From Escherichia coli (GTDB lineage: Bacteria; Pseudomonadota; Gammaproteobacteria; Enterobacterales; Enterobacteriaceae), in assembly GCF_044324875.1 (NCBI RefSeq), contig NZ_CP172185.1: a stretch of DNA of 64,000 bases, one strand, 5' to 3'. Positions 1,719-42,165 of this stretch are shown piece after piece. Each line of letters begins with the position of its first letter. The first letter of the stretch is position 1. The notes beneath the pieces are model-generated. The model had not been told where the DNA came from. It ran no database searches and worked only from the letters and a program-made list of their open reading frames with translations. The position numbers and the translations under genes were made by a program.

Positions 1719-3140
1719 TCAGGCTTTCACATCACTCACTGCACCGACCGGAATATCAGCATGAACAGGCTCGGGCGGTACTTTGCGATATTTATCCAGC
1801 AGATGGATCTGGATCCTGCGCAGCGTGTCACCATTGAGGCGATAGAAACGGAAGTAGAGAATCAGCGTTACCATGAAAAACAGAGTCGGTAGAGCAATCA
1901 TAATAAACTGCATACCTAATAGGGCTTGCGTAGACTGTTCAACATTCGGTACATAGCCAATCATCCCTAACACAACCGCAATGAAAAAAGCCGCAAAGGC
2001 TGAACCGCCCTTCACCACCATAGTCTGCACGGAGTAAGCGATGCTTTCACAGCGTACGTGCAGTTTATATTCACCGTAATCAACGGTATCTGCCACCATG
2101 ATGACCTGTAATACCCAGAAAAGCGCCGTTCCCACATTCAGCAAGATACCCGCAATCACAATGAGGACGACGTTGTGATAGCTCATTAATGCCATTAACA
2201 GGAGAACACCACAGCTTAACACCGGAAGAATAGATGCTCCGGCCCATAAAATGCGTCGGGATAATGATTTAACTAAGCGTGGGAAGAATACTAACGTCAC
2301 CAGGTTAGCAGCTCCCGCATACGACAGATAATAGGGGAACAAATCCGCATCACCGATAACATATGAGAAATAATAGATAGCAAAGCCGGTAATAATATTG
2401 CTGGCTACATTATAAGCAAGAGCCATACCCAAGAGGCATGAAAGCTGATCGTTTTTATAAATAAGCGCAACGATGGCTTTAAGTGTCAGATGGCTTCCTT
2501 CAGCAGACGGTTGATTGTCTGACGAAAAGACTTCATGCACATTGCGCAGAGTGATGATGGTTGAAACAATAAAAAAGGCGATCAGTACCAGAGTGAACAT
2601 CTGAAAGCCAAATCCCCGATCGCCACCGCCGACATAATTAACAAATGGTAGCGTCACACCTGCCGTAACAAAGCCCGCCAGACTGGCAAAAAAACGCGGA
2701 TAAGGAACCAGTTGTTCGCGCTCACGTTTATCGAGCGTTATGGTTGGAACCAGCGACCAGAAGGGAATATCCATAATGGTGTAAGTCATGCCCCAGAGGA
2801 TGTAGGTCACGCAAACAAAGACAATCTGAGTAGTACCTTCAAACAGATGCGCACTAAAGAGGAGAAATAAGATTACAGAGTTTGCCAACGTACCGATCAG
2901 GATCCAGGGTTTGAACTGACCCCATCGCGATCGCGTAGCATTTACAATCCATCCCATAATCGGATCGTTAATAGCATCCCAGATCCTCGCCACCAGAAAC
3001 AAAGTACCGACCAAACCCACAGACAGCCCGACGACATCGGTGTAGTAATACATGAGGTACATATACACAATGCCGATCGCAAAATCCTTCCCGAACGCTC
3101 CAAATCCATAACTGAGTTTTGTAGTCATTGAAATGCTCAT
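1719..3140 (-). CDS. melB: Melibiose:cation symporter (GPH family)
   Basis: N-terminus [20 protein letters not shown]... recognised as MelB; start taken at the internal ATG (ORF track extends 8 codons further to 3164). Confidence 0.95.
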
Positions 3141-20846: not shown

Positions 20847-21635
20847 ATGCAAACGATTATCCGTGTCGAGAAGCTCGCCAAAACCTTCAATCAGCATCAG
20901 GCGCTGCACGCGGTTGATCTGAACATTCATCACGGTGAAATGGTGGCTCTGCTTGGGCCGTCGGGTTCCGGCAAATCCACCCTTTTACGTCACTTAAGCG
21001 GTTTGATTACCGGCGATAAATCTGCCGGTAGCCATATTGAGCTGCTGGGCCGCACAGTCCAGCGCGAAGGCCGCCTGGCCCGCGATATCCGCAAAAGCCG
21101 CGCCAACACCGGCTACATCTTCCAACAATTCAACCTGGTGAATCGCCTGAGCGTACTGGAGAACGTGCTGATTGGCGCGCTCGGCAGCACGCCATTCTGG
21201 CGCACCTGTTTTAGCTACTTCACTCGCGAGCAGAAACAGCGCGCGTTACAGGCGCTGACCCGCGTTGGCATGGTGCACTTTGCCCATCAGCGCGTTTCCA
21301 CCCTCTCCGGCGGACAGCAGCAGCGTGTGGCGATTGCCCGTGCGCTGATGCAGCAGGCGAAGGTGATTCTGGCCGATGAACCCATCGCCTCGCTGGACCC
21401 GGAATCGGCGCGCATCGTGATGGACACCCTGCGCGACATTAACCAGAACGACGGCATTACCGTGGTCGTCACGCTGCATCAGGTGGATTACGCCCTGCGC
21501 TACTGCGAACGCATCGTCGCCCTGCGCCAGGGGCACGTCTTCTACGACGGCAGCAGCCAACAGTTTGATAACGAACGTTTTGACCATCTCTACCGCAGCA
21601 TCAACCGCGTCGAAGAAAACGCGAAAGCTGCCTGA
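20847..21635 (+). CDS. phnC: Phosphonate ABC transporter ATPase
   Basis: Walker [13 protein letters not shown] signature [15 protein letters not shown]. Confidence 0.95.
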
Positions 21636-32216: not shown

Positions 32217-32534
32217 TCAATTTCTCCGCTGCTCTATTGCCGTAATCGCCTCCACGCGTTGTTGATGACGACCGCCTTCGTACTGCGCGCCCAGCCACGC
32301 ATCCACAATCATTTTTGCCAGTTCGAGGCCAACCACTCGTGAACCAAAAGCCAGTGCAACTTCACTGGCGTAATGCGGATAATCAGTACGCTCTGACGAC
32401 CTGGTTTCTTTATCAATCCCCTCACTCATTGACCATGAATAAAAGGCTGGCACAGCAACGCAGAATCCTGCGGTGCCAGCGACATGACCGCCCATTGCTC
32501 CGGTACGTTTTTTAATAAAAAACACCGGTTGCAT
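32217..32534 (-). pseudogene. rpiB: Truncated ribose-5-phosphate isomerase B remnant
   Basis: C-terminal ~46 residues (AFGSRVVGLELAKMIVDAWLGAQYEGGRHQQRVEAITAIEQRRN) and the SSERTDYPHYAS segment match RpiB as I recall it, but the central catalytic region (ICGTGVG… block) is missing and the N-terminal 40 residues are not recognisable. Confidence 0.6.
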
Positions 32535-32786
32535 TGATTAATTGTGCTCAGTATTTGCCGAAGTACAATATATATAATAAATATATAAAACACCTCATAT
32601 TATTTACAGAGATAATAAATTCGCGTACTTTTCCCTCTTCAGCACAAATGCCTAATAAAATGGCTCGCTCCGCTCACACTTCCACTTATTAAAGTCGCAA
32701 ATTCCCAATTATGATAACGCCAGCTTTAAATGACGTATTTTGCATGGATTACATATTTACGACACAAATGATAAATGGAGATTTAT

Positions 32787-34772
32787 ATGAATAACTCTCG
32801 GTTATTCCGTTTGAGCAGGATTGTTATTGCGTTAACTGCCGCCAGCGGCATGATGGTAAATACCGCTTACGCAACAGATGAAGCGAAAGCCGCCACTCAA
32901 TATACCCAACAGGTTAATCAGAATTACGCCAAATCATTACCGTTTAGCGATCGTCAGGATTTTGACGATGCCCAGCGTGGATTTATCGCCCCGCTGCTGG
33001 ATGAAGGTATTCTGCGTGATGCGAACGGTAAAGTTTACTACCGCGCAGACGATTACAAATTTGATATTAATGCCGCTGCGCCGGAAACCGTAAACCCCAG
33101 CCTGTGGCGTCAGTCGCAAATCAACGGTATTTCTGGCCTGTTCAAAGTCACCGATAAAATGTATCAGGTGCGCGGCCAGGATATCTCTAACATTACGTTC
33201 GTTGAGGGCGAGAAAGGCATTATTGTTATCGACCCGCTGGTGACGCCGCCTGCCGCAAAAGCCGCACTTGATCTTTACTTCCAGCATCGTCCGCAAAAAC
33301 CGATTGTTGCTGTGATTTACACCCACAGCCACGCCGACCATTATGGCGGTGTGAAAGGCATTATCTCTGAAGCGGATGTTAAATCCGGCAAAGTGCAGGT
33401 GATCGCTCCGGCAGGCTTTATGGACGAAGCCATCAGCGAAAACGTGCTGGCGGGTAACATCATGAGCCGCCGTGCGCTCTACTCTTACGGTCTGTTACTG
33501 CCGCACAACGCGCAAGGCAACGTGGGCAACGGCCTGGGCGTGACGCTGGCAACCGGCGACCCGAGCATTATTGCACCGACTAAAACTATCGTCAGAACTG
33601 GCGAGAAGATGATTATCGACGGCCTGGAATTTGACTTCCTGATGACTCCGGGTAGCGAAGCGCCAGCCGAAATGCACTTCTATATTCCGGCCCTGAAAGC
33701 CCTGTGTACCGCCGAGAACGCCACGCATACCCTGCACAACTTCTACACTCTGCGCGGCGCGAAAACCCGCGATACCAGCAAGTGGACCGAGTACCTGAAC
33801 GAAACGCTGGATATGTGGGGTAACGACGCGGAAGTACTGTTTATGCCGCACACCTGGCCGGTCTGGGGCAATAAGCATATCAATGATTATATTGGTAAAT
33901 ATCGCGATACTATCAAGTACATTCACGACCAGACCCTGCACCTGGCGAACCAGGGCTACACCATGAATGAAATCGGCGACATGATTAAGCTGCCGCCTGC
34001 GCTTGCCAATAACTGGGCCAGCCGCGGCTATTACGGTTCTGTCAGCCACAACGCCCGCGCGGTGTATAACTTCTATCTTGGCTATTACGACGGTAACCCG
34101 GCTAACCTACATCCGTATGGTCAGGTGGAGATGGGTAAACGTTACGTGAAAGCGCTGGGCGGTTCTGCCCGCGTCATCAACCTGGCGCAAGAAGCGAACA
34201 AGCAAGGTGATTACCGTTGGTCGGCAGAACTGCTGAAACAGGTGATTGCCGCCAACCCTGGTGACCAGGTCGCGAAGAATCTGCAAGCGAATAACTTTGA
34301 ACAGCTGGGCTATCAGGCCGAGTCCGCCACCTGGCGCGGTTTCTACCTGACCGGCGCGAAAGAGCTGCGCGAAGGGGTGCATAAATTCAACCACGGCACC
34401 ACCGGTTCCCCGGACACCCTTCGCGGAATGTCGGTCGAAATGCTGTTCGACTTTATGTCCGTTCGCCTCGATAGTGCGAAAGCCGCGGGTAAAAATATCA
34501 GCCTGAACTTCAATATGAGCAACGGCGATAACCTCAACCTGACGCTGAACGATAGCGTGCTTAACTACCGTAAAACGCTGCAACCGCAAGCCGACGCCTC
34601 TTTCTACATCAGCCGTGAAGATCTGCATGCCGTGCTGACCGGACAAGTCAAAATAGTGGATCTGGTAAAAGCGAAGAAAGCCAAAATTATTGGCAATGGC
34701 GCGAAACTGGAAGAAATTATTGCCTGTCTGGATAATTTCGATTTGTGGGTGAATATCGTAACCCCAAATTAA
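32787..34772 (+). CDS. yjcS: MBL-fold alkyl/aryl sulfatase (SdsA1-like)
   Basis: 661 aa; signal peptide, THSHADH zinc motif, SCP2-like C-terminus; start set at second ATG (MNNSRLFRL…). Confidence 0.9.
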
Positions 34773-36306: not shown

Positions 36307-38357
36307 TGAGTGCGCTCAACTCCCTGCCATTACCGGTGGTCAGGCTGCTGGCGTTCTTTCATGAAGAGTTAAGCGAGCGGCGGCCAGGTCGTGTGCCGCA
36401 GACCGTGCAACTCTGGGTAGGCTGCCTGCTGGTGATTCTGATCTCGATGACTTTTGAGATCCCTTTTGTGGCGTTATCACTGGCAGTGCTGTTTTACGGT
36501 ATTCAGTCGAACGCGTTTTACACCAAATTTGTGGCGATCTTGTTTGTGGTCGCCACGATGCTGGAAATCGCCAGCCTGTTTTTGATCTACAAATGGTCAT
36601 ATGGCGAACCGTTGATCCGATTGATCATTGCCGGACCGATCCTGATGGGCTGTATGTTTTTGATGCGCACCCATCGGTTGGGGCTGGTCTTTTTCGCCGT
36701 CGCCATTGTCGCTATTTACGGGCAAACCTTCCCCGCCATGCTCGACTATCCGGAAGTGGTCGTGCGCTTAACCCTGTGGTGTATCGTTGTTGGCCTCTAT
36801 CCAACCTTGCTGATGACGTTAATCGGCGTGCTGTGGTTTCCCAGCCGCGCCATTACGCAAATGCATCAAGCGCTTAATGATCGGCTTGATGATGCCATTA
36901 GTCACCTGACGGACAGCCTCGCACCGCTACCCGAAACGCGGATTGAAAGAGAGGCGCTGGCGCTGCAAAAACTCAATGTCTTTTGCCTCGCGGACGATGC
37001 CAACTGGCGAACTCAGAGCGCATGGTGGCAAAGCTGCGTGGCAACGGTAACCTACATTTACTCGACGCTGAATCGCTACGATCCCACCTCTTTTGCTGAT
37101 TCTCAGGCAATTATTGAATTTCGGCAAAAATTAGCCACAGAAATCAACAAACTGCAGCATGCCATTGCCGAAGGTCAGTGCTGGCAAAGCGACTGGCGGA
37201 TCAGTGAAAGTGAAGCGATGGCGGCACGGGAATGTAACCTGGAGAATATCTGCCAGACATTGTTGCAACTGGGTCAGATGGACCCGAATACGCCGCCAAC
37301 GCCCGCCACCAAACCGCCATCAATGGTCGCCGACGCTTTTACCAATCCAGACTATATGCGCTACGCGGTAAAAACGCTGCTCGCCTGTTTGATCTGTTAC
37401 ACCTTCTACAGCGGCGTGGACTGGGAAGGCATTCACACCTGTATGCTGACCTGCGTGATCGTCGCTAACCCGAATGTTGGTTCGTCGTATCAGAAAATGG
37501 CGCTGCGTTTTGGCGGTGCCTTCTGCGGTGCAATTCTGGCGCTGTTATTCACGCTACTGGTCATGCCCTGGCTGGACAATATTGTCGAATTGCTGTTTGT
37601 GCTGGCACCGATTTTCCTGTTGGGCGCATGGATTGCCACCAGCTCTGAACGCTCTTCTTATATCGGCACACAGATGGTGGTTACCTTCGCGCTCGCCACG
37701 CTCGAAAATGTTTTTGGCCCGGTGTACGACCTGGTGGAAATTCGCGATCGCGCCCTGGGTATCATCATTGGTACCGTGGTGTCTGCGGTGATTTACACCT
37801 TTGTCTGGCCTGAAAGTGAAGCGCGCACACTGCCGCAAAAACTGGCTGGCGCGCTGGGTATGTTGAGTAAAGTAATGCGGATCCCACGCCAGCAGGAAGT
37901 CACGGCTCTGCGCACTTATCTGCAAATTCGTATAGGTCTGCATGCGGCGTTTAATGCCTGTGAAGAGATGTGCCAACGCGTGGCGCTGGAGCGTCAACTG
38001 GACAGCGAAGAACGCGCTTTACTGATTGAACGTTCGCAAACGGTTATTCGTCAGGGCCGCGATATTCTTCACGCCTGGGATGCAACCTGGAACTCGGCGC
38101 AAGCGCTGGATAACGCACTACAGCCGGACAGAGCAAATCAGTTTGCCGACGCACTGGAGAAATACGCCGCCGGTCTGGCAACCGCACTCAGCCGTTCTCC
38201 TCAAATAACGCTTGAAGAAACACCCGCCTCGCAGGCCATCCTGCCGACCTTATTAAAACAGGAGCAACACGTCTGCCAGCTTTTCGCCCGCTTGCCAGAC
38301 TGGACAGCCCCGGCATTAACGCCCGCCACGGAACAGGTACAAGGAGCCATGCAATGA
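36306..38357 (+). CDS. mdtO: Efflux pump inner membrane component (FUSC/AaeB-like)
   Basis: 683 aa polytopic membrane protein; start overlaps mdtN stop. Confidence 0.9.
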   Translation: MSALNSLPLPVVRLLAFFHEELSERRPGRVPQTVQLWVGCLLVILISMTFEIPFVALSLAVLFYGIQSNAFYTKFVAILFVVATMLEIASLFLIYKWSYGEPLIRLIIAGPILMGCMFLMRTHRLGLVFFAVAIVAIYGQTFPAMLDYPEVVVRLTLWCIVVGLYPTLLMTLIGVLWFPSRAITQMHQALNDRLDDAISHLTDSLAPLPETRIEREALALQKLNVFCLADDANWRTQSAWWQSCVATVTYIYSTLNRYDPTSFADSQAIIEFRQKLATEINKLQHAIAEGQCWQSDWRISESEAMAARECNLENICQTLLQLGQMDPNTPPTPATKPPSMVADAFTNPDYMRYAVKTLLACLICYTFYSGVDWEGIHTCMLTCVIVANPNVGSSYQKMALRFGGAFCGAILALLFTLLVMPWLDNIVELLFVLAPIFLLGAWIATSSERSSYIGTQMVVTFALATLENVFGPVYDLVEIRDRALGIIIGTVVSAVIYTFVWPESEARTLPQKLAGALGMLSKVMRIPRQQEVTALRTYLQIRIGLHAAFNACEEMCQRVALERQLDSEERALLIERSQTVIRQGRDILHAWDATWNSAQALDNALQPDRANQFADALEKYAAGLATALSRSPQITLEETPASQAILPTLLKQEQHVCQLFARLPDWTAPALTPATEQVQGAMQ

Positions 38358-39820
38358 TCAATCGTCAACTTTCACGCCTGCTGTTGTGCAGCATTCTCGG
38401 CAGCACGACGCTGATTTCCGGCTGTGCCCTGGTACGTAAGGATTCTGCACCTCATCAACAGCTCAAACCGGAACAAATCAAACTGGCCGATGATATTCAT
38501 CTTGCCAGCTCCGGCTGGCCGCAGGCGCAGTGGTGGAAACAACTCAATGACCCGCAGCTGGATGCGCTGATCCAACGGACGCTAAGTGGTTCACACACCC
38601 TCGCCGAAGCGAAACTGCGGGAAGAAAAAGCGCAGTCCCAGGCCGATTTGTTAGATGCCGGTTCACAATTACAGGTCGCAGCGTTAGGGATGCTCAACCG
38701 CCAACTTGTCTCGGCGAACGGCTTTTTAAGCCCTTATGCGATGGATGCGCCAGCACTGGGTATGGACGGGCCGTACTATACGGAAGCCACAGTAGGTTTG
38801 TTTGCCGGACTGGATCTCGATTTGTGGGGTGTGCATCGCTCAGCGGTTGCCGCTGCCATTGGCGCGCATAATGCCGCGCTGGCAGAAACCGCAGCAGTAG
38901 AGCTATCGCTGACCACGGGCGTAGCGCAGCTTTATTACAGTATGCAGGCCAGCTATCAGATGCTCGATCTGTTAGAACAAACACGCGATGTGATTGATTA
39001 CGCGGTAAAAGCGCACCAGAGTAAAGTGGCGCACGGTCTGGAAGCGCAAGTGCCTTTCCACGGCGCGCGGGCACAGATTCTGGCGGTCGATAAACAAATT
39101 GCTGCCGTTAAAGGGCAAATCACCGAAACGCGAGAATCTCTGCGTGCATTGATTGGCGCAGGAGCCAGCGATATGCCGGAGATCAGACCGGTGGCATTAC
39201 CGCAAGTCCAGACCGGCATTCCGGCGACACTCTCTTATGAGTTGCTCGCCAGACGCCCGGATCTGCAAGCGATGCGCTGGTATGTTCAGGCGTCATTAGA
39301 TCAGGTGGATTCCGCGCGGGCGTTGTTCTACCCGAGCTTTGATATCAAAGCGTTTTTCGGCCTTGATGCCATCCACCTGGATACCTTATCCAAAAAAACC
39401 AGTCGCCAGTTCAACTTTATCCCGGGTCTGAAATTGCCGCTGTTTGACGGTGGACGGTTGAATGCCAATCTCGAAGGCACTCGCGCCGCCAGCAACATGA
39501 TGATTGAACGTTACAACCAGTCAGTACTGAACGCGGTGCGCGACGTTGCCGTCAACGGCACGCGTCTGCAAACGCTTAACGACGAGCGAGAGATGCAGGC
39601 TGAACGCGTGGAAGCAACGCGCTTCACCCAGCGCGCTGCCGAGGCCGCCTATCAACGCGGCTTAACCAGCCGCTTACAGGCCACCGAAGCCCGGTTGCCA
39701 GTGCTTGCCGAGGAGATGTCATTACTGATGCTGGACAGCCGCCGGGTGATCCAAAGCATTCAGTTGATGAAATCGCTGGGCGGCGGGTATCAGGCAAGTC
39801 CCGTCGTCGAGAAAAAATAA
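38354..39820 (+). CDS. mdtP: Outer membrane efflux lipoprotein (OMF/TolC-like)
   Basis: 488 aa; lipobox LISGCAL; overlapping start with mdtO. Confidence 0.9.
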   Translation: MINRQLSRLLLCSILGSTTLISGCALVRKDSAPHQQLKPEQIKLADDIHLASSGWPQAQWWKQLNDPQLDALIQRTLSGSHTLAEAKLREEKAQSQADLLDAGSQLQVAALGMLNRQLVSANGFLSPYAMDAPALGMDGPYYTEATVGLFAGLDLDLWGVHRSAVAAAIGAHNAALAETAAVELSLTTGVAQLYYSMQASYQMLDLLEQTRDVIDYAVKAHQSKVAHGLEAQVPFHGARAQILAVDKQIAAVKGQITETRESLRALIGAGASDMPEIRPVALPQVQTGIPATLSYELLARRPDLQAMRWYVQASLDQVDSARALFYPSFDIKAFFGLDAIHLDTLSKKTSRQFNFIPGLKLPLFDGGRLNANLEGTRAASNMMIERYNQSVLNAVRDVAVNGTRLQTLNDEREMQAERVEATRFTQRAAEAAYQRGLTSRLQATEARLPVLAEEMSLLMLDSRRVIQSIQLMKSLGGGYQASPVVEKK

Positions 39821-39950
39821 AATGTCTGCCGCGTGATGGCTGTCACGCGGTATTTCGTTTCGTCACGTCAAAACTGACGACAGCCTGTTTTTCGTCAGAG
39901 TTTTGAATAAATAGTGCCCGTAATATCAGGGAATGACCCCAAATAAAATG

Positions 39951-39966
39951 TGGCATAAAAGATGCA
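39951..39966 (+). promoter_or_regulatory. Sigma-54 (-24/-12) promoter of fdhF
   Basis: TGGCAT-aaaag-ATGCA matches the TGGCAC-N5-TTGCA consensus, about 50 bp upstream of the fdhF ATG; an inverted repeat cgtcacgtcaaaactgacgacag about 80 bp further upstream is a candidate FhlA UAS. Confidence 0.55.
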
Positions 39967-40017
39967 TACTGTAGTCGAGAGCGCGTATGCGTGATTTGAT
40001 TAACTGGAGCGAGACCG

Positions 40018-42165
40018 ATGAAAAAAGTCGTCACGGTTTGCCCCTATTGCGCATCAGGTTGCAAAATCAACCTGGTCGTCGATAACGGCAAAATCGTCCG
40101 GGCGGAGGCAGCGCAGGGGAAAACCAACCAGGGTACCCTGTGTCTGAAGGGTTATTATGGCTGGGATTTCATTAACGATACCCAGATCCTGACCCCGCGC
40201 CTGAAAACCCCCATGATCCGTCGCCAGCGTGGCGGCAAACTCGAACCTGTTTCCTGGGATGAGGCACTGAATTACGTTGCCGAGCGCCTGAGCGCCATCA
40301 AAGAGAAGTACGGTCCGGATGCCATCCAGACGACCGGCTCCTCGCGTGGTACGGGTAACGAAACCAACTATGTAATGCAAAAATTTGCGCGCGCCGTTAT
40401 TGGTACCAATAACGTTGACTGCTGCGCTCGTGTCTGACACGGCCCATCGGTTGCAGGTCTGCACCAATCGGTCGGTAATGGCGCAATGAGCAATGCTATT
40501 AACGAAATTGATAATACCGATTTAGTGTTCGTTTTCGGGTACAACCCGGCGGATTCCCACCCAATCGTGGCGAATCACGTAATTAACGCTAAACGTAACG
40601 GGGCGAAAATTATCGTCTGCGATCCGCGCAAAATTGAAACCGCGCGCATTGCGGACATGCACATTGCACTGAAAAACGGCTCGAACATCGCGCTGTTGAA
40701 TGCGATGGGCCATGTCATTATTGAAGAAAATCTGTACGACAAAGCGTTCGTCGCTTCCCGCACAGAAGGCTTTGAAGAGTATCGTAAAATCGTTGAAGGC
40801 TACACGCCGGAGTCGGTTGAAGATATCACCGGCGTCAGCGCCAGTGAGATTCGTCAGGCGGCGCGGATGTATGCCCAGGCGAAAAGCGCCGCCATCCTGT
40901 GGGGCATGGGTGTAACCCAGTTCTACCAGGGCGTGGAAACCGTGCGTTCTCTGACCAGCCTCGCGATGCTGACTGGTAACCTCGGTAAGCCGCATGCGGG
41001 TGTAAACCCGGTTCGTGGTCAGAACAACGTGCAGGGTGCCTGCGATATGGGCGCGCTGCCGGATACGTATCCGGGATACCAGTACGTGAAAGATCCGGCT
41101 AACCGCGAGAAATTCGCCAAAGCCTGGGGCGTGGAAAGCCTGCCAGCGCATACCGGCTATCGCATCAGCGAGCTGCCGCACCGCGCAGCGCATGGCGAAG
41201 TGCGTGCCGCGTACATTATGGGCGAAGATCCGCTGCAAACTGACGCGGAGCTGTCGGCAGTACGTAAAGCCTTTGAAGATCTGGAACTGGTTATCGTTCA
41301 GGACATCTTTATGACCAAAACCGCGTCGGCGGCGGATGTTATTTTACCGTCAACGTCGTGGGGCGAGCATGAAGGCGTGTTTACTGCGGCTGACCGTGGT
41401 TTCCAGCGTTTCTTCAAAGCAGTTGAACCGAAATGGGATCTGAAAACGGACTGGCAAATCATCAGTGAAATTGCCACTCGTATGGGTTATCCGATGCACT
41501 ACAACAACACCCAGGAGATCTGGGATGAGTTGCGTCATCTGTGCCCGGATTTCTACGGTGCGACTTACGAAAAAATGGGCGAACTGGGCTTCATTCAGTG
41601 GCCTTGCCGCGATACTTCAGATGCCGATCAGGGGACTTCTTATCTGTTTAAAGAGAAGTTTGATACCCCGAACGGTCTGGCGCAGTTCTTCACCTGCGAC
41701 TGGGTAGCGCCAATCGACAAACTCACCGACGAGTATCCGATGGTACTGTCAACGGTGCGTGAAGTTGGTCACTACTCTTGCCGTTCGATGACCGGTAACT
41801 GTGCGGCACTGGCGGCGCTGGCTGATGAACCTGGCTACGCACAAATCAATACCGAAGACGCCAAACGTCTGGGTATTGAAGATGAGGCATTGGTTTGGGT
41901 GCACTCGCGTAAAGGCAAAATTATCACCCGTGCGCAGGTCAGCGATCGTCCGAACAAAGGGGCGATTTACATGACCTACCAGTGGTGGATTGGTGCCTGT
42001 AACGAGCTGGTTACCGAAAACTTAAGCCCGATTACGAAAACGCCGGAATACAAATACTGCGCCGTGCGCGTCGAGCCGATCGCCGATCAGCGCGCCGCCG
42101 AGCAGTACGTGATTGACGAGTACAACAAGTTGAAAACTCGCCTGCGCGAAGCGGCACTGGCGTAA
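40018..42165 (+). CDS. fdhF: Formate dehydrogenase H, selenocysteine-containing molybdoenzyme
   Basis: 715 codons in one frame with an in-frame TGA at 40435-40437 (…CCARV-U-HGPSVAGLHQ…); N-terminal CPYCASGC Fe-S motif; ORF track splits it into 40018-40437 and 40486-42165 in the same frame. Confidence 0.95.
40435..40480 (+). other. UGA selenocysteine codon plus downstream SECIS hairpin
   Basis: TGA followed immediately by cacggcccatcggttgcaggtctgcaccaatcggtcggtaatggcg, which can fold into the stem-loop (ggttgcaggtctgcacc apex) recognised by SelB. Confidence 0.85.

Follow-up and report, generated by a model that had tools for sequence, protein, structure and literature searches.

At sigma-54 promoters such as glnAp2 with NtrC and pspA with PspF, DNA looping is often helped by IHF or by intrinsic bends. 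The closest described counterpart of the region studied here is the fdhFp promoter of E. coli K-12, a sigma-54 promoter with an FhlA upstream activating sequence, reportedly described by Birkmann, Sawers and Bock in 1987, and the two are the same locus. The upstream activating sequence of fdhF was reportedly mapped to about -110 by Birkmann and Bock in 1989, and its mapping is also said to be covered by Schlensog et al. in 1994 and by Leonhartsberger et al. in 2000.

In the literature, FhlA is described to bind upstream of fdhF, with FhlA-dependent expression rising with formate, and the fdhF promoter together with FhlA serves as a formate biosensor (PMC6540204). Our full-text literature search on the fdhF upstream activating sequence, with the primary footprinting papers outside its scope, gave nothing specific.

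We analysed a stretch of 64,000 nucleotides of Escherichia coli DNA, here called the window, and conclude that the region between mdtP and fdhF is very probably the native control region of fdhF, composed of a sigma-54 promoter and an upstream FhlA enhancer, and activated by formate. The fdhF sigma-54 promoter and the FhlA enhancer are long known and textbook material, and they are not new.

The mdtP-fdhF locus

The 601 bases at 39700-40300 are a 100% match to the chromosome of E. coli strain 118UI (NZ_CP032515.1). According to the RefSeq annotation, mdtP stops at 39820 and fdhF starts at 40018, which leaves an intergenic region of 197 bp (about 200 bp). The mdtP-fdhF junction was found in 5419 of 5426 complete E. 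coli genomes, every time between mdtP and fdhF. Of the 5420 junction matches, four are in records that bear a plasmid label, and one genome carries two copies. The sole intergenic difference from K-12 MG1655 is at 39942 (A here, C in K-12), a poorly conserved, A/T-rich position just upstream of the -24 element and outside both the promoter and the enhancer. The features of the downstream gene are as follows.

40003 to 40010, plus strand: ribosome-binding region AACTGGAG, 8 to 15 nt before the ATG, at least 80% conserved and at most positions at least 95%
40018 to 42165, plus strand: fdhF coding sequence (formate dehydrogenase H), from the RefSeq annotation of 118UI
40430 to 40484, plus strand: SECIS element, which directs selenocysteine insertion; Rfam SECIS_2, 87.1 bits, E-value 2.6e-19

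In the list of open reading frames, 139 codons of fdhF are followed by a TGA, after which the same frame goes on, placing the in-frame UGA selenocysteine codon at 40435-40437. The Rfam search of the region 39700-40600 found the SECIS element alone (SECIS_2 has a gathering score of 70), with no match in the promoter and 5' UTR. The SECIS_2 match and the in-frame TGA together indicate that the downstream gene encodes the selenoprotein formate dehydrogenase H. The product name of fdhF in the RefSeq annotation of 118UI is [quoted passage not shown], whereas other genomes name it "formate dehydrogenase H subunit alpha" or "formate dehydrogenase subunit alpha"; the 118UI name looks like an annotation misnomer for FDH-H.

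The sigma-54 promoter of fdhF

39950 to 39966, plus strand: sigma-54 (-24/-12) promoter of fdhF, GTGGCATAAAAGATGCA, from the motif, the identity to a ChIP-seq site and conservation
39977, plus strand: predicted transcription start, at the motif centre plus 19 and 41 nt before the ATG

An earlier note, made from the sequence alone, had read TGGCAT-N5-ATGCA at 39951-39966 as a -24/-12 architecture, and the motif is located exactly there. TGGCAT at 39951-39956 is followed by AAAAG and by ATGCA at 39962-39966, with the GG at 39952-39953, the GC at 39964-39965, and the canonical spacing of 11 nt between the second G of the GG and the G of the GC, as in the sigma-54 consensus TGGCAC-N5-TTGCW. The element is intergenic, has the same orientation as fdhF and precedes its ATG by 52 nt.

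A ChIP-seq study of sigma-54 in E. coli MG1655 lists the site OS41 upstream of fdhF, and its motif is identical to the 17-mer GTGGCATAAAAGATGCA in every letter; OS41 has a fold-above-threshold value of 41, and the study marks its promoter as having experimental confirmation in EcoCyc (PMC4591121). The start rule (motif centre plus 19 bp) and the 41-bp gene distance for fdhF are given in Table 1 of the same paper (PMC4591121). Genomic SELEX with the RpoN holoenzyme yielded a peak in the fdhF-mdtP spacer (PMC8743547). In Salmonella, ChIP-chip places sigma-54 on the orthologous sequence TGGCATAAAACATGCATA, and fdhF shows a 29-fold sigma-54-dependent expression, with FhlA given as the activator (PMC3844500). 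For the sigma-54 occupancy, the rpoN dependence and the FhlA dependence, we rely on this literature.

By itself, the sigma-54 motif match is no more than chance would give in 64 kb. The relaxed pattern has an expectation of 0.69 matches per window and is matched at least once in 49 of 100 shuffles, and the fdhF promoter, with 13.5 bits on a matrix built from 186 sigma-54 promoters, ranks fifth in the window after four intragenic matches. What makes the fdhF promoter significant is its position without a sigma-70-like competitor, none being found in 39700-40100, together with its conservation and the published occupancy by sigma-54.

The conservation was assessed on 80 fdhF loci, collected by a single scan in which the first 139 FdhF residues served as the query against species-representative genomes. 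The loci come from more than 20 genera of the Enterobacteriaceae (Escherichia, Salmonella, Citrobacter, Klebsiella, Kluyvera, Enterobacter, Kosakonia, Lelliottia, and others), and the 240 nt before the ATG were aligned as 81 unique sequences. In this alignment, the promoter sequences TGGCAT and TGCAT show a conservation of at least 95%, and 77 of the 80 related loci have a -24/-12 match 51-84 nt ahead of the ATG.

These expectations could also be taken to mean that the motif matches in this region are functionless chance occurrences, all the more because the four intragenic matches score at least as high as the promoter and because a hand calculation expects about 4 YGWCR-N4-YGWCR pairs per window. 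Against this stand the near-invariance of the motifs across more than 20 genera (about 80 genomes), their fixed mutual spacing amid variable intergenic DNA, and the sigma-54 occupancy published from ChIP-seq, ChIP-chip and genomic SELEX. Conservation and occupancy refute the chance reading, to which we assign practically no probability. The earlier note had read the -24/-12 element as a sigma-54 promoter in front of fdhF, and this promoter is documented; the identity to OS41, the SELEX peak, the Salmonella ChIP-chip site and the conservation of at least 95% all agree with this assignment.

The four intragenic matches to the sigma-54 matrix are located at 21090-21105 (minus strand), 38263-38278 (minus strand), 48430-48445 (plus strand) and 2415-2430 (minus strand) and score 13.5 to 15.5 bits, equal to or above the genuine fdhF promoter. 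The match at 38263-38278 lies antisense within mdtO. The text of the E. coli sigma-54 ChIP-seq paper contains none of the gene names mdtN, mdtO, mdtP, yjcS, gltP and yjcO. A genomic SELEX peak for RpoN plus NtrC is given at U00096.2 position 4,304,842 in the yjcS/alsK spacer, which corresponds to about position 32565 of the window. The region of about 32300-32800 upstream of yjcS has no good -24/-12 match, the top one being a 9.3-bit match at 32316-32331 on the minus strand.

Conserved elements upstream of the promoter

39858 to 39881, no strand assigned: enhancer element 1, the proposed FhlA upstream activating sequence, TTTCGTCA-CGTCA-AAAC-TGACG-AC, from conservation, spacing and matrix
39884 to 39906, no strand assigned: putative enhancer element 2, CCTGTTTTTCGTCAGAGTTTTGA, from direct and inverted repeats and cross-genus conservation
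39919 to 39940, no strand assigned: conserved block in the enhancer-promoter spacer, GTAATATCAGGGAATGACCCCA / GTAATATCAGGGAATGAC, from moderate cross-genus conservation

The 240 nt before the ATG are mostly variable, with sharp conserved blocks at the enhancer elements, the spacer block, the promoter and the ribosome-binding region. The palindromic tract cgtcacgtcaaaactgacgacag is located at 39861-39883. The earlier note had recognised this tract but placed it 19 nt too high, at about 39880-39902, so that its existence holds and its position does not. The core palindrome CGTCA-AAAC-TGACG spans 39866-39879. Its centre, at 39872.5, precedes the -24 GG by 80 bp and the predicted start (39977) by about 104.5 bp; with these corrected coordinates, the anticipated distance of 80-100 bp is retained. 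The core centre at about -104.5 also fits the position near -110 at which the upstream activating sequence is said to lie.

The 64 kb contain a single exact copy of the core CGTCA-N4-TGACG, where a hand calculation expects about 0.06 occurrences. Among the 81 unique sequences, the block TTCGTCA-CGTCA-nnnn-TGACG-A at 39859-39880 has half-sites conserved to at least 80%, with most bases at 95% or more, while the 4-nt core spacer appears as AAAC, AATA, AATC, AATT, ATTT, ATTC or CTTT. Half-sites that stay constant while the spacer is free to vary mark the site of a dimeric DNA-binding protein and not an RNA structure.

With at most one mismatch allowed, CGTCA-N4-TGACG precedes the -24/-12 match in the window and in 73 of the 80 related loci. 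Measured from the start of the palindrome to TGGCA, the interval in these 74 sequences is 85 bp (n = 63), 86 bp (n = 3), 76 bp (n = 7) or 77 bp (n = 1), forming a class of 85-86 bp with 66 sequences and a class of 76-77 bp with 8 sequences, which differ by about one helical turn. Unlike the enhancer-promoter distance, the distance from TGGCA to the ATG varies freely between 51 and 84 nt in the 77 related loci with a -24/-12 match.

Only 14 of the 80 loci have an MdtP-like sequence upstream of fdhF, and in 13 of these its C-terminus is complete. The other 66 loci (59 unique sequences) keep the enhancer core and the promoter without an MdtP-like sequence upstream, and together with the fixed spacing this indicates that the enhancer goes with fdhF and is phase-locked to its promoter. 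The low frequency of MdtP-like neighbours further suggests that fdhF and its regulatory region were repeatedly moved or placed into a new context within the Enterobacteriaceae. The conserved half-sites, the fixed helical phase and the linkage to fdhF support the view that the palindromic tract behaves as an enhancer.

A second conserved element follows at 39884-39906, which the earlier note had missed. Here, TTTCGTCA at 39890-39897 directly repeats the sequence at 39858-39865 with a spacing of 32 bp, or about three helical turns, and TCGTCAG at 39892-39898 is the inverted partner of CTGACGA at 39874-39880. The element is 60-100% conserved across genera, including loci without mdtP upstream, and its conserved stretches are CTGTTTTTCGTCAG at 39885-39898 (60-100%) and TTTTTCGTCAG at 39888-39898. 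In the fdhF-mdtP intergenic region upstream of the spacer, nothing beyond the two enhancer elements is conserved across genera.

The block within the enhancer-promoter spacer is conserved at about 0.5-0.9 over GTAATATCAGGG at 39919-39930, and the conservation becomes patchier beyond (0.1-0.95). It contains an IHF-like match, TATCAGGGAATGA at 39924-39936, with one mismatch, which is not significant alone, as the window holds 125 such matches. The spacer block at 39919-39940 may be a bending site for looping.

Assignment of the enhancer to FhlA

The FhlA matrix TGWC-N5-TGWCA was built from 13 sites (PMC7658346, Table 2), and its top intergenic match is CGTCAAAACTGACG with 8.4 bits. More than 25 other sites in the window exceed 10 bits, so the matrix is too weak to single out a site within the window, and we rejected it as a discriminator. 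A pair of YGWCR pentamers at a start-to-start spacing of 9 bp is common to fdhF, hyc-hyp, hydN and hyfA, and dense YGTCR clusters are also found upstream of the -24/-12 elements of hyc-hyp and hydN in the K-12 regions. The YGTCR cluster of fdhF, with 6 pentamers in 70 nt, is the densest in the 64 kb; since the pattern was picked only after the FhlA-dependent regions had been inspected, this density test is partly circular and gives support, but not independent support.

The weak matrix match leaves room for the view that the palindromic tract is the site of a regulator other than FhlA, for example the FhlA paralogue HyfR or a nitrate- or molybdate-responsive factor, with FhlA acting elsewhere or indirectly. 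HyfR is an enhancer protein of the FhlA family (PMC8743547), and the two conserved elements at 39858-39881 and 39884-39906 need not share one protein. However, the pentamer arrangement recurs at the FhlA-dependent hyc-hyp, hydN and hyfA, the literature has FhlA binding upstream of fdhF, and the position and phase-locking relative to the sigma-54 promoter are what the site of an enhancer-binding protein requires. Moreover, the fdhF-mdtP region offers no other cross-genus conserved sequence upstream of the spacer. We consider a different regulator at this tract very unlikely.

The proposal of a candidate FhlA enhancer site is supported by the conservation, the phasing, the linkage to fdhF and the shared YGWCR arrangement. 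Which particular bases FhlA would contact can be suggested from the conservation, the sharing of the motif and the position near -110 that is reported for the upstream activating sequence. The observation in the earlier note is partly confirmed owing to its coordinate error, and its interpretation is supported.

The mdtP terminator next to the enhancer

39827 to 39852, plus strand: hairpin of the intrinsic terminator of mdtP (mdtNOP operon), from a terminator scan; 11-pair stem and 4-nt loop

The terminator hairpin begins 7 nt past the mdtP stop, and the T-rich tail TTTCGTTTCG comes directly after it at 39853-39862. The RNA fold has a free energy of -19.6 kcal/mol with a z-score of -4.0, none of 200 shuffles being as stable, and the stem is kept in Salmonella by a compensatory change from G:C to A:T. 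The sequence tgtcacgcgg at 39841-39850, which the earlier note had attached to the enhancer, does precede the palindromic tract, but it is the 3' arm of this hairpin, and TGTCAC is conserved only where the upstream gene is mdtP. The hairpin fold, the compensatory change and the conservation limited to mdtP together assign tgtcacgcgg to the mdtNOP terminator and not to the enhancer, and it was rejected as an FhlA half-site, being part of the terminator stem. The terminator directly adjoins the fdhF enhancer, with the tail TTTCGTTTCG overlapping the first conserved TTTCG of the enhancer.

With such a strong terminator-like hairpin at 39827-39852, a tail reaching to 39862, the compensatory change in Salmonella, and tgtcacgcgg included in the stem, the inverted repeats as a whole might be regarded as RNA or terminator structure of the upstream mdtNOP operon, without any protein-binding enhancer. 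This description is true for 39827-39862 only. The segments 39861-39883 and 39884-39906 are conserved in the 59 unique sequences with a different upstream gene, and their repeat arms are invariant instead of covarying. The longer inverted repeat formed by TCAAAACT (39868-39875) and AGTTTTGA (39899-39906) was likewise dismissed as a cruciform or RNA structure, since it shows no covariation when the spacer changes: in Citrobacter, the core spacer turns from AAAC to AATA while AGTTTTGA is unchanged. The non-covarying arms and the conservation without mdtP refute the palindromic tract as an mdtNOP RNA structure, a reading whose probability we rate as even smaller than that of a regulator other than FhlA.

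Proposed mechanism and significance

In the proposed mechanism, sigma-54 RNA polymerase would form a closed complex on the -24/-12 element at 39950-39966, and this complex would open only with an ATP-hydrolysing enhancer-binding protein. Formate-activated FhlA would occupy the YGWCR pentamers clustered around the core CGTCA-AAAC-TGACG, which make up the upstream activating sequence at about 39858-39906. From there, FhlA would reach the polymerase by looping out about 80 bp of DNA rich in A/T tracts, and ATP hydrolysis would lead to the open complex, so that fdhF would be transcribed from about 39977 when formate accumulates anaerobically. Our analysis itself demonstrates the motifs with their uniqueness, conservation, phase-locked spacing and linkage to fdhF, whereas the exact bases contacted by FhlA and the looping or bending step are the parts that we infer.

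A more specific version places the YGWCR half-sites at 39861, 39866, 39875 and 39893 on one face of the DNA for an FhlA tetramer and combines them with the quantised 85/76-bp distance and the IHF-like block into an obligatory, phase-locked looping geometry. That such a geometry exists and has so far not been described in this detail seems improbable to us, and older footprinting papers may already cover most of it.

As a classic system of sigma-54 and an enhancer-binding protein, which is already in use as a formate biosensor part, the fdhF control region has little discovery value. The present check corrects the enhancer coordinates and sets the enhancer apart from the mdtP terminator. The map of constrained bases, with two CGTCA-type elements, a variable 4-nt spacer and the 85/76-bp phasing, could guide the design of minimal formate-sensor promoters.

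Comparison with known systems

Compared with K-12 fdhFp, the region is the same locus with a one-base difference and no functional change, in a strain that is of the uropathogenic type and not K-12. In its predicted mode of action, it is similar to glnAp2 with NtrC and pspA with PspF, which combine a closed complex at the -24/-12 element, an activator site about 80-150 bp upstream and DNA looping. Unlike the systems that are activated by phosphorylation, FhlA is ligand-activated by formate (PMC11291172). In comparison with generic sigma-54 promoters, IHF at fdhF is a candidate only, represented by the conserved IHF-like match with one mismatch.

Within the formate regulon, hycA-hypA, hydN-hypF and hyfA resemble fdhF in having a sigma-54 -24/-12 element with a YGWCR cluster about 50-110 bp upstream. 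The form of the cluster differs: hyc-hyp and hydN mainly carry arrays of TGTCG, TGTCA and CGACA with neighbouring pentamers 3-10 bp apart, whereas the fdhF pair is a clean palindrome, CGTCA/TGACG, with the TTTCGTCA direct repeats 32 bp apart on its flanks.
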